Source of the DNA: Syntrophales bacterium
Lineage (GTDB): Bacteria; Desulfobacterota; Syntrophia; Syntrophales; PHBD01
Assembly (NCBI GenBank): GCA_963668175.1
Contig: OY764159.1
Coordinates: 4,224,001 to 4,288,000 of the forward strand
Length of the DNA: 64,000 nucleotides
Direction: 5' to 3'
Shown here: positions 3 to 5,832 of the stretch, piece by piece
How positions within the stretch are numbered: the stretch's first letter is position 1
How the letters are laid out: each line of letters starts with the position of its first letter
Program-made: the position numbers and the translations under genes
Notes under the pieces: generated by a model
Told to the model about the DNA's origin: nothing
Databases searched by the model: none
What the model saw: only the letters and a program-made list of their open reading frames with translations

Positions 3-1973
3 GGCAGAAGCCGGGGGAGCATACTGGAAGCCCTGGCAGCCATAGAGGGCATCTATGTGCCGGCCGTTCATAAGGGGAACGAAACCATCAGGAAGAGGGT
101 CATTGCCGATCTGAATGCATGGTTGTATCCGGCGAGCCCCCTGGTCCCTCTCATGAAGACGATACACGACCGGGTGACCCTGGAAATAGCCAGAGGCTGC
201 ACCCGCGGCTGCCGTTTCTGCCAGGCGGGCATGGTATGGCGGCCCGTCCGCGAAAGAAACCCGGAATCCTTGAAAAAGATGGCCGATCAGATGTTGTGTT
301 CGACGGGCTACGATGAGCTTTCCTTGTTATCGTTGAGTTCAGGGGACTACAGCCTGATCGAGCCGCTGTTGTCCGACCTGATGGAGCGCTACTATCACCG
401 ACGGATTGCCATCGGACTGCCGTCGCTCCGCGCAGAAACGCTGAAAGAGCGGTTGATCGAAGAAATCAAGCGCGTTCGGAAGACAAGCTTCACGCTGGCT
501 CCGGAGGCCGGCACCCAGCGGCTGCGCGACGCAATCAACAAGGGCAACAGCGAAGAGGACCTTCTGGCAACGACGGGACGGGTTTTCGATGCGGGCTGGA
601 AATCGGTGAAACTCTATTACATGCTGGGACTGCCCGGCGAAACGGAAGAGGACATGGAAGGAATCGTCGACCTCAGTTACAAGGTTCTGAAGACCGCCAG
701 AAATCGCGGCCAGGTGACGGTCAGCATGTCCACCTTCGTCCCGAAGGCATTCACGCCTTTTCAATGGAACGCACAGATCTCATTGGAAGAAACGCGGCAG
801 AAGCAGGATTACTTCAGAAAACGTCTCAAGCACCGCAACCTGAACGTGAAATGGCACGATGCCCGGATGAGCGTCCTGGAGGGCATTTTCGCCCGGGGCG
901 ACGAGGAGACGGGTTTGCTCTTTGAAGACGCCTTCCGCCGCGGATGCAGGTTCGACGGGTGGACGGACCGGTTCCGGCATGACCTTTGGGAAGAGGCCGT
1001 TCGCGACAGCGGGCTGGCCGTCGATGCATGGCTTAAGTCCAGGAACCTGACGGACAGACTTCCCTGGGACAGGATCGACTGCGGTATCGATCGCCGTTTT
1101 CTCGTTTCCGAATTGGAAAAATCGGCCGCTCGCGAATCAACGGCGGATTGCCGCACCGGCAAGTGCCATCAGTGCGGCGTATGCGATCACATCAACATTC
1201 GTCCGCTGACCGCCGATGCATTACCCGCTTCGAATACGGACCGGCCGCTGCCCCGGACGGAGGCTTCGGCTGGGCAATCATCTTTGCTGACAGGCCGTTT
1301 TCTCCTCCAATTCGCCAAAACGGGCTTGTCCCGCTTTCTTTCCCATTTGGAATTGTCGTCATCCTTGATCCGCGCCATCAATCAGAGCGGTTTGAATTTC
1401 GTCTTTTCGCAGGGTTTCCACCCCCATCCGAAAATTTCCTTCGCCTGTGCGACGTCCGTGGGCATGGCAAGCGAGGGGGAATTCGCGGAGATACAGATAC
1501 AGAGGCATTCAGAGCCCATCGAGAAGATCCTGCAAAGGATCAACGCCTTCCTGCCAGCGGGCGTTGAAGTCCTCACCTTCAGACCCATCCCTTCCTATGG
1601 CCGTTCATTGTCCGAGACGGTCACCGGTTTCGAATACCGCGTCGTTCTGCCCGATGCTGTGCCCCGAGAGGGACTGCCGGCCATAACGGAGCAAATCTCT
1701 GCTTTTATGGCCAGCCGGGAATGGGTTGTCGTCCGGGAAGCGAAAGGAAAGGCCTCCACCAAAAATATTCGCCCGCTGGTGAAAGCATTGACTTTGGAGG
1801 ACGACGCGATTATACGGATGATCGTCGATTTCGGTCCGGAGGGATCGGTGAAGCCCTCGGATATCCTGACCCAGGTTCTCAAGCTGAATCAGGAACTGGT
1901 AAGAACGATGTGTATCGTGAAAGTCGGAACGCTTTTCCGCGAAGAGACAAACACCGGAACATCATGTCCATGA
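3..1973 (+). CDS. Radical SAM protein (TIGR03960-like) fused to a C-terminal radical SAM-linked (TIGR03936/DUF2344-like) domain; 5'-truncated by the window edge
   Basis: CxxxCxxC motif (RGCTRGCRFC), CxxxxCxxCxxC linker, C-terminal FLSHLE...FSQGFHPHPKISF motif; frame is open back to position 3. Confidence 0.85.
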   Translation, partial: GRSRGSILEALAAIEGIYVPAVHKGNETIRKRVIADLNAWLYPASPLVPLMKTIHDRVTLEIARGCTRGCRFCQAGMVWRPVRERNPESLKKMADQMLCSTGYDELSLLSLSSGDYSLIEPLLSDLMERYYHRRIAIGLPSLRAETLKERLIEEIKRVRKTSFTLAPEAGTQRLRDAINKGNSEEDLLATTGRVFDAGWKSVKLYYMLGLPGETEEDMEGIVDLSYKVLKTARNRGQVTVSMSTFVPKAFTPFQWNAQISLEETRQKQDYFRKRLKHRNLNVKWHDARMSVLEGIFARGDEETGLLFEDAFRRGCRFDGWTDRFRHDLWEEAVRDSGLAVDAWLKSRNLTDRLPWDRIDCGIDRRFLVSELEKSAARESTADCRTGKCHQCGVCDHINIRPLTADALPASNTDRPLPRTEASAGQSSLLTGRFLLQFAKTGLSRFLSHLELSSSLIRAINQSGLNFVFSQGFHPHPKISFACATSVGMASEGEFAEIQIQRHSEPIEKILQRINAFLPAGVEVLTFRPIPSYGRSLSETVTGFEYRVVLPDAVPREGLPAITEQISAFMASREWVVVREAKGKASTKNIRPLVKALTLEDDAIIRMIVDFGPEGSVKPSDILTQVLKLNQELVRTMCIVKVGTLFREETNTGTSCP

Positions 1974-3334
1974 ATTCGGACGCATCCAGAGAGAAAGCTG
2001 CAACGATAACGGCAAAGCTTCACCGTGCGGGTTATGAAGCCTACTTTGTGGGGGGCTGTGTCCGCGATATGGTCCGCGGCGTACCGCCCGCGGATTATGA
2101 CATCGTGACCTCGGCGCTTCCGGAACAGGTCCAATCGCTTTTTCCAAGAACCATTCCGGTCGGAGCCGCTTTCGGCGTCATCCTTGTCGTTGAAGACGGC
2201 CATCCGTACGAAGTAGCCACATACCGAACGGAGCACGGATACGAGGACGGACGACATCCGTCTCAGGTGACGTATTCGACGGCAGAGCAAGACGTTCTTC
2301 GGCGGGACTTTACGATCAACGGACTGCTCATGGAACCTGAATCGGGACGGGTCATCGATTACGTGGGGGGCGTTGCTGATATCGAGAACAGGATCGTCCG
2401 CACGATCGGGGACCCGGAAGAACGCTTCACGGAAGATCATCTCCGTATGATCAGGGCCGTAAGGTTTTCGGCCAATCTTTCCTATGGCGTCCACCCGGAA
2501 ACGCTGCAGGCGATCAGGAAAAACGCGCCGCTTGTCCGGAGAATCAGCCGGGAACGTATCCGGGAAGAGATGACCAAGATCCTCACGGGGCGCGGAGCCC
2601 GCTCCGGGGTGGAGATGCTGGCAGAATCGGGCATCCTCAAGGAAATCCTTCCCGAACTCGTCGCTTTGCAGGGCGTTGAGCAACCGCCATTCTACCATCC
2701 GGAAGGCGACGTATGGGAACACACCCTGCGGATGCTCTTCATCCTGTCCGAATCGGCCCCGACCGATCCCAGGCTCGCATGGGCCGTTGTCCTCCATGAC
2801 ATCGGCAAGGCGGTGAGCCGCTCGGAAGACGACGCCGGCGTTCATTTCTACGGCCACGTCCAGACGGGAAAGGAGATTGCCGCAGCGATCCTCGAACGTC
2901 TGAGGTTTTCACGAAGCGACCAGGAAACGATCATGGCCCTGGTTCAGGAGCACATGAAATTCATGCACGTCCGCGACATGCGCCCCAGCAAAATCAAACG
3001 CTTCATCAGGAAGGCCGATTTCGACCTCCATCTCGAACTGCATCGTCTCGACTGCCTCGGGAGCCATGGCATGCTTGACAACTACGAATTTTGCCGCGGG
3101 AAGCTGGATGAATTCACGGTGGAGGAACTCCATCCGCCCAGGTTACTGAACGGCGACGATCTTATCGCCATGGGTTTCCTGCCCGGGAGGCACTTCAAGG
3201 AGATTCTCCGGGAGTTGGAAGACGCCCAGTTGAGCGGTCAGGTTCACTCTACGGAAGAGGCCCGTACCCTGGTCATGACCCGATACGGCGGACTGCTTCC
3301 CGAACCGGACGGACGGAAGGTGACGCCGTCGTGA
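1970..3334 (+). CDS. cca: CCA tRNA nucleotidyltransferase / poly(A) polymerase family protein with HD domain
   Basis: VGGCVRD, DYD, RRDFTIN, EDHLRMIRAVRF, HPEGDVWEH and LHDIGK motifs; ATG at 1970 overlaps the upstream stop (ATGA); 1964 is an alternative start. Confidence 0.9.
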   Translation: MNSDASREKAATITAKLHRAGYEAYFVGGCVRDMVRGVPPADYDIVTSALPEQVQSLFPRTIPVGAAFGVILVVEDGHPYEVATYRTEHGYEDGRHPSQVTYSTAEQDVLRRDFTINGLLMEPESGRVIDYVGGVADIENRIVRTIGDPEERFTEDHLRMIRAVRFSANLSYGVHPETLQAIRKNAPLVRRISRERIREEMTKILTGRGARSGVEMLAESGILKEILPELVALQGVEQPPFYHPEGDVWEHTLRMLFILSESAPTDPRLAWAVVLHDIGKAVSRSEDDAGVHFYGHVQTGKEIAAAILERLRFSRSDQETIMALVQEHMKFMHVRDMRPSKIKRFIRKADFDLHLELHRLDCLGSHGMLDNYEFCRGKLDEFTVEELHPPRLLNGDDLIAMGFLPGRHFKEILRELEDAQLSGQVHSTEEARTLVMTRYGGLLPEPDGRKVTPS

Positions 3335-3374: not shown

Positions 3375-4721
3375 TCAATAACCGGTTTTTTGAGAATCCC
3401 TGCTGCCGACGACGGTCATACCGATGATGTCGCTCAAATACCCTTTCCCGCGTCTATGCCTTTTGGATTTCACTCCCGGCTGGAGGGTTGTGACGGCGGC
3501 ATGCCCGACAATCTGTCTGCTGCTTTTCTTTCGGGTCTTCTTGTCCCGGGCACTCCAGAAATTGTGAAAAACGAGAATCTCCCCATTGTAACTGCCCATA
3601 TAGAGCATGATGTGCCCCTTGACCCAAAGCAGCGTCATGTAGGGAACGCCTTCTTTGAGAATGATCTTCTCTTTATCTTTCGAGGGAACCTCCCGGAGGT
3701 CGATGAACGATCCTCCCTCCAGAGCCTGATTCTTGGAGTTTCTCGGCATCCATATGCCGAAAGGCACGAACAGGTCCATGATCATGGCGGAACAATCCCT
3801 GTTCTGATAAAGCCCTCCCCATCCGTAGGGTTCATTGATAAGCTCGTTGGCAACCATGGCCATGTTGGTTCGGGTCAGCGGTAAAGGCTTCAGGGCAACG
3901 GCATCCGCCGGAACCACGGCCTTTTCAACGACGGCCCTGCCTGTCTGATTCGCAACGGCCACCGCAATATTCCGTTTCTTGCCGTCGGTACTTTCGCCTT
4001 CGTCCGGAAACAGGGTACCGATAGGCGCATTGAACAAATGCCGGCCGTTCTCGTCATAGATGGAAAGCTTGTCCTTAATCGGAACGACAAATGGTCTCTC
4101 CTTCCATTGTCCGATGAAATCGGCGTCGACGCGGGCCACGTCCTTGGCCGGAAGCCAGCCGTATGTATATCCGGTCTCGACGAAGACCCAGGTCCTGTCT
4201 TTCGTCCAGTGTGACAGATAGACGGGGGTGTTGACGTAAATGGCCGACTGCTGGAAATTATCGAAGGGATAGGTACAGCGTCCTGTTTCGCAATGGTTGA
4301 AATGGGGCCTCCGCGTGGGCAATACCCTCAAGTCCGAATTTGCTATGGCGATGCCCCTGCCTCCGCCGTTGGGAAAACTTTCCAGGTCGATATTTTCGGC
4401 CAGGGAATCTATCCATTCGAGGCTGTGTTTCCTGAGATTCTCGCCGTAGCCCGGATTATGGCGATAGATTTTCAGCTCTTCTTCGATTTCCGCTTTTGTA
4501 TAGCGCGGTTTTTCACAGGTCCAGGGTAAAAAATACATTTTATTGAAAACCGCATCCATCCTCTGCTGCTCTTCCCGAGGCGCCAATTCCTGAGTAGTCG
4601 ATATCTTGTCAAGATAGTAGCGGTGATCCTGCTTTAAAACGCGGATATCCCGAATGACGTCGGACGATCCGAAAAGACCCGATATTATTAACAGCCAGGC
4701 AATCCCGTTATGATAAAACAT
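3375..4721 (-). CDS. NlpC/P60 family cell-wall peptidase with SH3 domains
   Basis: PYGWGG...RDCSA catalytic Cys motif, GHIMLY His, N-terminal hydrophobic signal. Confidence 0.85.
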   Translation of the reverse strand: MFYHNGIAWLLIISGLFGSSDVIRDIRVLKQDHRYYLDKISTTQELAPREEQQRMDAVFNKMYFLPWTCEKPRYTKAEIEEELKIYRHNPGYGENLRKHSLEWIDSLAENIDLESFPNGGGRGIAIANSDLRVLPTRRPHFNHCETGRCTYPFDNFQQSAIYVNTPVYLSHWTKDRTWVFVETGYTYGWLPAKDVARVDADFIGQWKERPFVVPIKDKLSIYDENGRHLFNAPIGTLFPDEGESTDGKKRNIAVAVANQTGRAVVEKAVVPADAVALKPLPLTRTNMAMVANELINEPYGWGGLYQNRDCSAMIMDLFVPFGIWMPRNSKNQALEGGSFIDLREVPSKDKEKIILKEGVPYMTLLWVKGHIMLYMGSYNGEILVFHNFWSARDKKTRKKSSRQIVGHAAVTTLQPGVKSKRHRRGKGYLSDIIGMTVVGSRDSQKTGY

Positions 4722-4929
4722 GAGTGTTTCCCGATTCGCAGTCTAAATATTCATCATGGCCGATTTATTGCTTATTTTAACACAAGACCCTATGAACGGC
4801 AAACGTTATAAATGAATGGCAATACTGAAGAAAGACTGTTATATTATAAGGGTAGATAAAATTCGCAGAATTGAACTTTTTGGAGACCGCTCCTGTTTCC
4901 TGAAAAGACAACAGCTGAGGAGGAATGAC

Positions 4930-5145
4930 ATGGATGAGCAGGTATTGATTTATGGAAAACAGGGGTGACCTTACACGGATATGGCCAGGTCGGTCTATGG
5001 AAAGAGGGCTCTGTTCATCGATGTGAAATTGGATGGCGCAAAGCTTAAGGAGATGCTGAAATTATCCGGTGGATCGAGGCAGGTACCCGTTATCGTCGCC
5101 GCCGGCAAGGTGACCATAGGTTACGGCGGCTCTTGAGGCGTATAA
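4930..5145 (+). CDS. Glutaredoxin-like selenoprotein, 71 aa, two selenocysteines (U13 in UPYT; U69 in C-terminal GGSUGV-stop); Uxx-star-type
   Basis: RBS GAGGAGG at 4917-4923, ATG 4930, in-frame TGA at 4966 and 5134, TAA 5143-5145; reads MDEQVLIYGKQGUPYTDMARSVYGKRALFIDVKLDGAKLKEMLKLSGGSRQVPVIVAAGKVTIGYGGSUGV; Grx motifs QVPVI and IGYGG; hairpin after each TGA. Confidence 0.88.
4979..4998 (+). promoter_or_regulatory. Putative SECIS element for TGA 4966
   Basis: Stem ATA-(T bulge)-GGCC / GGTC-TAT with AGGTC loop starting 18 nt after the TGA; G in the second loop position. Confidence 0.7.
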
Positions 5146-5146
5146 A

Positions 5147-5165
5147 GACCTCCCGTCGGGAGGTT
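5147..5165 (+). promoter_or_regulatory. Putative SECIS element for TGA 5134, located in the 3' UTR
   Basis: GACCTCCC-GTC-GGGAGGTT stem-loop; loop starts with G, 18 nt after the TGA; no poly-U tail. Confidence 0.7.
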
Positions 5166-5325: not shown

Positions 5326-5832
5326 ATGTCGGATGAAACCAAAACGATAAATCAGGCCGTAAAAGCGATGGTAGACAAAGAAGGAAAATATCTGACCTTC
5401 TCGCTCGCCGGAGAGGAATACGGTATCGGGATATTGAAGGTGAAAGAGATTATAGGAATGATGTCGATTACCATGGTCCCGCAGACGCCGGTGTATATGA
5501 AAGGGGTCATTAATTTAAGGGGCAAGGTCATCCCTGTCGTCGATCTCAGGATTAAATTCGGGATGGACCCCATCGAATATAACGAGCGAACCTGCATCAT
5601 CGTAGTGGAAATCAGCGGCGAAGGCCGAACCATTCACATGGGCATCGTCGTCGACTCCGTCTCCGAAGTATTGAATATAAAGGCTGCAGACATCGAAGAG
5701 ACACCGAACTTCGGTACTCAGCTCAATACGGAATATATTCTGGGCATGGCCAAATCGGCAGGAGGGATTAAGATCCTCCTCGACATCGATCGCGTCCTGA
5801 GCACGGAAGAAATTGCCGGTATGACGAAATAA
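5326..5832 (+). CDS. cheW: Chemotaxis adaptor CheW
   Basis: KYLTFSL...EEYGI, GVINLRGKVIPVVDLR, GIVVDSVSEV motifs; RBS AAGGAGG upstream. Confidence 0.95.
   Translation: MSDETKTINQAVKAMVDKEGKYLTFSLAGEEYGIGILKVKEIIGMMSITMVPQTPVYMKGVINLRGKVIPVVDLRIKFGMDPIEYNERTCIIVVEISGEGRTIHMGIVVDSVSEVLNIKAADIEETPNFGTQLNTEYILGMAKSAGGIKILLDIDRVLSTEEIAGMTK

Follow-up and report, generated by a model that had tools for sequence, protein, structure and literature searches.

A Syntrophales gene that very probably encodes a cysteine-free UXX-star family 1 protein with two selenocysteines

The window analyzed here is a stretch of 64,000 nucleotides from a Syntrophales bacterium (contig OY764159.1). Between a divergent NlpC/P60-type gene (3375–4721, minus strand) and cheW (5326–5832, plus strand), it contains a plus-strand reading frame with two in-frame TGA codons, which gives a complete protein when both are translated as selenocysteine (Sec). 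The features at this locus are as follows.

4816–4845, plus strand: promoter-like site, ATGGCA and TATATT with an 18-nt spacer and an extended TG; weak consensus match (9/12)
4918–4923, plus strand: Shine-Dalgarno sequence AGGAGG, 6 nt 5' of the ATG at 4930; read directly from the sequence
4930–5145, plus strand: putative UXX-star family 1 selenoprotein coding sequence, 71 residues, ATG to TAA with the stop included; from the frame as read and profile matches
4966–4968, plus strand: UGA codon 13, putatively read as Sec, where glutaredoxins have the nucleophilic first Cys of CPYC
4979–4998, plus strand: SECIS-like hairpin 1, stem arms AUA-(bulged U)-GGCC and GGUC-UAU around the loop AGGUC, located within the coding sequence; from folding, alignment and pair counts
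5134–5136, plus strand: UGA codon 69, putatively read as Sec, at the 'UXX-star' position three codons 5' of the stop
5143–5145, plus strand: true stop codon TAA; read directly from the sequence
5147–5165, plus strand: SECIS-like hairpin 2, 8-bp stem GACCUCCC/GGGAGGUU and loop GUC, lying entirely within the 3' untranslated region; from folds and pair counts

Translated with TGA as U, the frame yields 71 residues with UPYT at positions 13–16, RQVP at positions 50–53, a C-terminal GGS-U-GV and no Cys; the codons 3' of the TGA at 5134–5136 are GGC and GTA, followed by TAA. The mechanical ORF list contains this frame as two pieces only (4816–4968 and 4981–5136), and the ORF track therefore misses the gene at 4930–5145. 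A sequence-only reading of the same DNA had described a strong ribosome binding site and an ATG opening a frame with two TGAs that the ORF track overlooks, and a Cys-free product of 71 amino acids carrying UPYT, QVP and GGS-U-GV-stop. Each of these elements was recovered exactly, with the TGAs at codons 13 and 69. Upstream, the same frame stays open as far as an ATG at 4816; a start at this position was rejected in favor of 4930 on the basis of the ribosome binding site, the start of the family model (at residue 5) and the starts of homologues. Promoter-like sites in the region numbered 2, compared with 1.2 ± 1.1 in shuffled sequences, which is not significant alone.

The protein matched the NCBIfam model NF041114.2, "UXX-star selenoprotein family 1", with 103.9 bits against a cut-off of 72 (E = 3.9e-30), and profile positions 1–70 of 70 were aligned to residues 5–71. 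The parent model NF041212 (78.4 bits, cut-off 66) and the Pfam Glutaredoxin domain (29.2 bits, cut-off 22.9) were also matched above their cut-offs. The agreement with family 1 extends over the full length, and UPYT, a Sec codon three codons before the stop and a length of ~70 residues are all shared; within the family, the window copy is a Sec13 form, not a Cys13 form, and its true stop is TAA instead of TGA. Two homologues already bear the NCBI protein name "UXX-star (seleno)protein family 1", and the name 'Uxx-star', which the sequence-only reading had given from recall, is indeed that of a curated family. These matches argue strongly that 4930–5145 (plus strand) encodes a Cys-free member of UXX-star family 1, and that both UGAs are decoded as Sec is very probable. 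Its family of selenoproteins is already curated and published, so the gene is no discovery. For this genome, the result is an annotation fix, in that a gene between the NlpC/P60 gene and cheW becomes visible only if both TGAs are translated as Sec, and the selenoproteome of the organism gains a double selenoprotein.

A literature search for 'UXX-star' returned a 2026 review (PMC13188914) as the sole text. A table and a sentence of that review give UXX-star family 1 as 'Distant Grx-like protein 1' with the motif UxxT and 2 Sec, cite Haft & Tolstoy 2025 on UXX-star families 1–3, and credit family 1 to Zhang & Gladyshev 2008. The main text of Zhang & Gladyshev 2008 contains 'Grx-like ... UxxC' and has no occurrence of 'distant Grx'. 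Fujita 2007 (PMC1914089) lists a 'Glutaredoxin-like' TGA cluster in Carboxydothermus, which may or may not belong to family 1.

The source genome, a single contig of 4.57 Mb, encodes a complete bacterial Sec machinery: selB (386.7 bits), selA (605.8 bits) and selD (391.4 bits) were all found above their cut-offs, and the tRNA-Sec model matched with 77.4 bits at a gene that ARAGORN called as tRNA-SeC with the anticodon tca (UCA). Lack of this machinery would have spoken against the earlier proposal of two Sec residues; all four components, selA, selB, selD and tRNA-Sec, are present. The selD gene, which lies outside the window (4129230–4130159 of the contig), has one in-frame TGA inside its full-length match, so that its product, selenophosphate synthetase, is probably a selenoprotein too. 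A second match to the tRNA-Sec model, at 1026000–1026093 of the contig, scored 47.9 bits against a gathering score of 47 and is probably another long-arm tRNA. When the genome was scanned for Uxx-star genes, 4930–5145 was the only one returned, together with one partial match of 20.8 bits.

We then surveyed 101 genomes (the source and 100 relatives), 56 of which contained a match, above the cut-off in 51. The 59 loci examined (that of the window and 58 from relatives) comprised 41 of the family 1 type and 18 of a paralogous clade. Among the 41 family 1 loci, codon 13 was TGA in 39 and TGC in two (L026 and L047), and codon 69 was TGA in every one (41/41). The 39 distinct homologous proteins shared 58–70% identity with the window protein across the full 71 residues, and the invariant columns of these 39 sequences (G12, U/C13, T16, R50, V52, P53, G66, G67 and U69) flank each TGA on both sides. 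Thus, similarity does not end at the first TGA, as the earlier reading had allowed it might, and homologues align a TGA or a Cys with position 13 and a TGA with position 69, as that reading required.

These observations bear on the alternative that 4930–5145 is not a selenoprotein gene at all, but a decayed glutaredoxin pseudogene, or that the 51-codon ORF at 4981–5136 is alone real. Standard ORF finding does yield fragments only, as such a reading would predict. However, the TGA sites are conserved across phyla, frameshifts are absent, identity extends over the full length, the ribosome binding site is correctly spaced and the Sec machinery is complete, so that we regard this alternative as extremely unlikely. 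The pseudogene in particular was rejected because both stops are TGA at conserved sites in a frame without frameshifts that retains full-length identity.

A further possibility is that only one UGA is decoded as Sec, in which case the protein would end at residue 68 and the hairpin behind the gene would be a transcript-stabilizing or terminator stem. Gene callers and some public annotations do stop Cys13 homologues at 68 residues. To cover other phyla, we scanned one genome per species with a peptide pattern requiring Cys at position 13, and 43 loci were returned, from Syntrophales, Pelotomaculum/Desulfotomaculaceae, Nitrospirae, Acidobacteriota, Planctomycetota, Anaeromyxobacter and others. 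A tail of TGA, exactly two sense codons (mostly Gly-Val) and a stop codon was found in all 43 of these loci and in all 41 family 1 loci, two sets that together span several phyla, and the curated NCBI model covers the tail as well (positions 1–70 of 70 matched). Both facts speak against an end at residue 68. The hairpin might pass for a terminator stem, but no T-run follows the stem, no terminator-like site was scored there and the distance between the hairpin and the UGA is fixed; hairpin 2 was accordingly rejected as a terminator. Taken together, these data make decoding of a single UGA very improbable, slightly less so than the absence of any selenoprotein gene.

The reading with two Sec residues is also compatible with the 30 database homologues. 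Seventeen of them (66–69 residues, Cys13) terminate at the tail TGA, six have Trp at the TGA codons, from gene calls in which TGA is Trp, six are fragments starting 3' of the first TGA and one has CPYC but lacks the tail. The six with Trp (P0002, P0014, P0016, P0018, P0024 and P0025) are public metagenome calls of full length with Trp at both Sec positions, and this Trp is a systematic mis-translation. Cys was found at position 69 in none of the 41 family 1 loci, none of the 43 Cys13 loci and none of the 30 database proteins. Judged from the aligned sequences, position 13 is a classical Sec/Cys pair, and the putative tail Sec69 has no Cys counterpart in any set examined here. The family exemplifies a tail Sec position without Cys-bearing relatives in these sets.

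The true stop codon of the 41 family 1 loci was TGA in 26, TAA in 10, including the window copy, and TAG in five. In the 26 loci with TGA (L024, L025, L027–L030 and others), UGA appears as Sec and then as a stop 9 nt further on, and a hairpin begins 1–7 nt 3' of the second TGA. In this respect the family would be a clear natural example, in many homologues, of UGA specifying Sec and, nine bases further on, termination.

The 18 paralogous loci in relatives (L050 and L053–L069) differ from the window gene in a motif of the [U/C]PFC or [U/C]PFT type and a longer linker before the tail. In four of them (L054–L056 and L068) the end was read as ...G-x-U-A-[VI]-stop; that of L053 is odd, with a TGA, three codons and another TGA. 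This clade looks like UXX-star families 2/3, and a copy was absent from the source genome in the genome scan. Families 2/3 and the HUGP/GUXX-star fusion have the same truncated glutaredoxin-like fold and the same Sec-x-x-stop end as the window protein, which nevertheless scored under the cut-offs of all of these models (47.6 bits versus 100 for NF041211, 48.6 versus 97 for NF047338 and 47.9 versus 325 for NF045501).

A hairpin after the TGA had been part of the earlier argument, and we found one after each UGA: both stems start 11 nt after their UGA, with a 10-nt spacer, and the stem of hairpin 2 begins 2 nt past the stop codon. In the window alone, the 65 nt after the first UGA folded no better than shuffled sequences (z = +0.47; 130/200 as good), and the 67 nt after the second UGA folded mildly better (z = –1.65; 10/200 as good). 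Covariation was strong for hairpin 2 and modest for hairpin 1. For hairpin 2, 92.3% of 234 cells were paired, compensatory changes occurred in 6/6 pairs (65 cells), covariation was 0.640 compared with 0.241 ± 0.025 in shuffles (0/500 as high) and slid controls were paired in at most 47%, where these counts come from the same alignments as the structure itself and related sequences inflate the shuffle control. The distance to the UGA is fixed, and loops containing G/U are found across the covarying stems. Since this stem lies beyond the stop codon, the family would offer a clear natural example that a bacterial SECIS can act wholly from the 3' untranslated region.

For hairpin 1, with the same limits on the counts, the 5-pair core was paired in 97.5% of 200 cells from 41 sequences, covariation was 0.266 compared with 0.186 ± 0.012 in shuffles (0/500 as high) and slid controls were paired in at most 62%. 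Compensatory changes were seen in 2/5 pairs and seven cells, for example from GCC/UCG to GCU/UCA, and fall at synonymous positions of Ala and Ser codons. The hairpin overlies the codons of a conserved Ala-Arg-Ser-Ala stretch; therefore, its conservation could be largely at the protein level, and the support that it provides is modest.

A structure predicted with AlphaFold2 from the alignment of 39 sequences had a mean pLDDT of 83.9. It contains the elements b1 (5–9), a1 (14–26), b2 (27–31), a2 (36–45), b3 (54–57) and b4 (60–63), followed by a coil tail (64–71) of lower confidence (last pLDDT blocks 70 and 57). The predicted fold is that of a glutaredoxin (b1-a1-b2-a2-b3-b4), in which an 8-residue Gly-rich tail would replace the usual last helix. 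The closest solved structures were the glutaredoxins 3IC4 (TM 0.74) and 3GRX (TM 0.72), and NrdH-redoxins followed with 0.64–0.72. This prediction, together with the Pfam Glutaredoxin match, bears out the assignment to a thioredoxin-fold, glutaredoxin-like protein that had been made from the sequence. When its profile was aligned with solved glutaredoxins, the first Cys of CPYC was matched by U13 and the second by T16, while K10 coincided with the conserved Lys and V52-P53 with the cis-Pro motif. Other Cys residues are absent from most family members.

Compared with dithiol glutaredoxins (E. coli Grx3, 3GRX/1FOV; A. fulgidus Grx-1, 3IC4), the window protein has the same fold (TM 0.72–0.74), and its active site, the Lys at –3 and the cis-Pro VP align with theirs; it differs in having Thr for the second Cys, no C-terminal helix and its second redox-capable residue on the tail. 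It also departs from what defines a classical glutaredoxin, dithiol CPYC or monothiol CGFS in a full fold with a C-terminal helix, as its motif is UPYT, its model closes with a coil tail beyond b4 and its score for TIGR02181 was 29.6 against a cut-off of 90. NrdH-redoxins (4FIW, 1H75 and 4HS1) have a small glutaredoxin-like fold of similar size (TM 0.64–0.72) and a CxxC motif, and no NrdH model was found among the NCBIfam matches of the window protein.

Mammalian thioredoxin reductase carries a Gly-Cys-Sec-Gly (GCUG) tail in which Sec pairs with the adjacent Cys, and SelL-type proteins have both Sec in one UxxU motif that forms a diselenide. The window protein resembles the former in a Sec near the penultimate position of a flexible Gly-rich C-terminal tail and the latter in having two Sec that would be able to form a diselenide; it is homologous to neither, and its Sec residues are 56 apart, in contrast to the UxxU of SelL. 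By analogy, the U69 tail would work somewhat like the GCUG tail of the reductase. Another Sec-containing glutaredoxin is that of Clostridium (Kim et al. 2011, as cited in PMC13188914), which the review gives as of the UxxC type. On that description, the first active-site residue of the glutaredoxin fold is Sec in both proteins, whereas the Clostridium protein retains a resolving Cys (UxxC), with a single Sec in a full-length fold, and the window protein has UxxT and a tail Sec.

The following mechanism could be proposed from the sequence and the model. U13 would attack the substrate from the place of the first Cys of CPYC, whose second, resolving Cys is replaced by the invariant Thr16. Since Thr16 is invariant at the resolving-Cys position, U69 would be the only second redox-capable residue. 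The flexible Gly-rich tail would then fold back to resolve the intermediate, with U69 forming a Se-Se bond (or S-Se where residue 13 is Cys), the protein acting as a small low-potential redox carrier. In ordinary glutaredoxins, the Gly-Gly after b4 lines the active site, and therefore U69, two residues on, would sit near U13. An intramolecular U13-U69 diselenide, as put forward in the sequence-only reading, is plausible and would fit the invariant T16 and U69. However, a diselenide is very hard to reduce, which counts against a redox cycle, no reductase or substrate for the protein was identified, and its gene neighbors vary between phyla. We consider the chances evenly balanced that the protein runs a redox cycle through a U13-U69 diselenide with the tail Sec69 as the resolving residue.

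Alternatively, the two selenolates could hold a soft metal, a metalloid (candidates being Hg, As, Cu and Cd) or another substrate, and the protein would be a chaperone or sensor without diselenide cycling. Metal or metalloid binding is what the review suggests (PMC13188914), and in two of the 43 Cys13 loci (L086 and L099) ArsR-type HTH_5 regulators lie immediately upstream. On the other hand, no metal-resistance or transport genes lie beside the gene in the window, none recur in 28 related or 43 distant loci apart from these two regulators, and the active-site geometry of glutaredoxins, with Lys at –3 relative to U13, the cis-Pro VP and the GG, is invariant and fits a redox function at least equally well. 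We therefore view metal binding as unlikely, and the redox cycle through U13 and U69 is the reading that we prefer.

We further analyzed the gene neighborhood. In the 28 related loci, the neighbors included an NlpC/P60 gene (12/28), an HtrA-type protease (9/28), a small cNMP-binding protein directly upstream (8/28), a rubrerythrin-like gene (7/28, six of them directly downstream on the same strand), RtcB (4/28) and a nitroreductase (3/28). One relative (L083) has the order cNMP-binding gene, UXX-star gene, HtrA and CheW. A block of the Syntrophales type recurs in L025–L045 and L081–L091, with NlpC/P60, cNMP-binding, UXX-star, rubrerythrin-like, HtrA and CheW genes, of which the window retains NlpC/P60 and CheW alone around the gene. 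Because related loci share these neighbors and L083 preserves the order, the layout of the window appears to be what is left of a syntenic block common to the lineage.

For the 43 Cys13 loci, 146 of the 152 neighboring ORFs were scanned (E ≤ 1e-10). A tandem ThyX-type (Thy1) gene of 514–585 residues adjoins 13 of them (L103, L104, L106, L108, L109, L113–L117, L120, L122 and L123), 12 of which are of the Acidobacteriota/Vicinamibacterales type, the other (L114) being labelled Bifidobacteriaceae. In 12 of these 13 genes there are two Thy1 (ThyX) stretches, which suggests a flavin-dependent thymidylate synthase fused in tandem. A class II (B12-dependent) ribonucleotide reductase lies just downstream and convergent in four of the five Planctomycetota loci (L096, L098, L100 and L101), and the contig of the fifth ends 184 nt past the match. 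Rubrerythrin was found beside six Syntrophales-type Cys13 loci, an ECF sigma factor beside four and an ArsR-type regulator beside the two mentioned above. No single partner conserved across phyla was found in the 28 related and 43 Cys13 loci.

An NrdH-like role as an electron donor in Planctomycetota would fit the adjoining ribonucleotide reductase, although this enzyme is of class II, as opposed to class Ib for NrdH-redoxins. A more elaborate and doubtful extension of the redox reading is that Sec69 is an obligate redox partner, never exchanged for Cys, that replaces the lost resolving Cys; the terminal -Sec-Gly-Val-COOH, folded back into what is the glutathione groove of ordinary glutaredoxins and bonding to residue 13, would then be a built-in seleno-thiol cofactor for organisms without glutathione. 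In some phyla such a self-contained redoxin would serve the synthesis of deoxynucleotides, in line with the adjoining class II ribonucleotide reductase and ThyX-type genes. Neither this connection nor that to oxidative stress amounts to evidence; both are leads.

Elsewhere in the window, the ORF of a radical SAM fusion (TIGR03960/TIGR03936; 57–1973, plus strand) and that of a CCA-adding enzyme (1721–3334, plus strand) overlap by ~250 nt, and the listed start of the latter is probably too far upstream.
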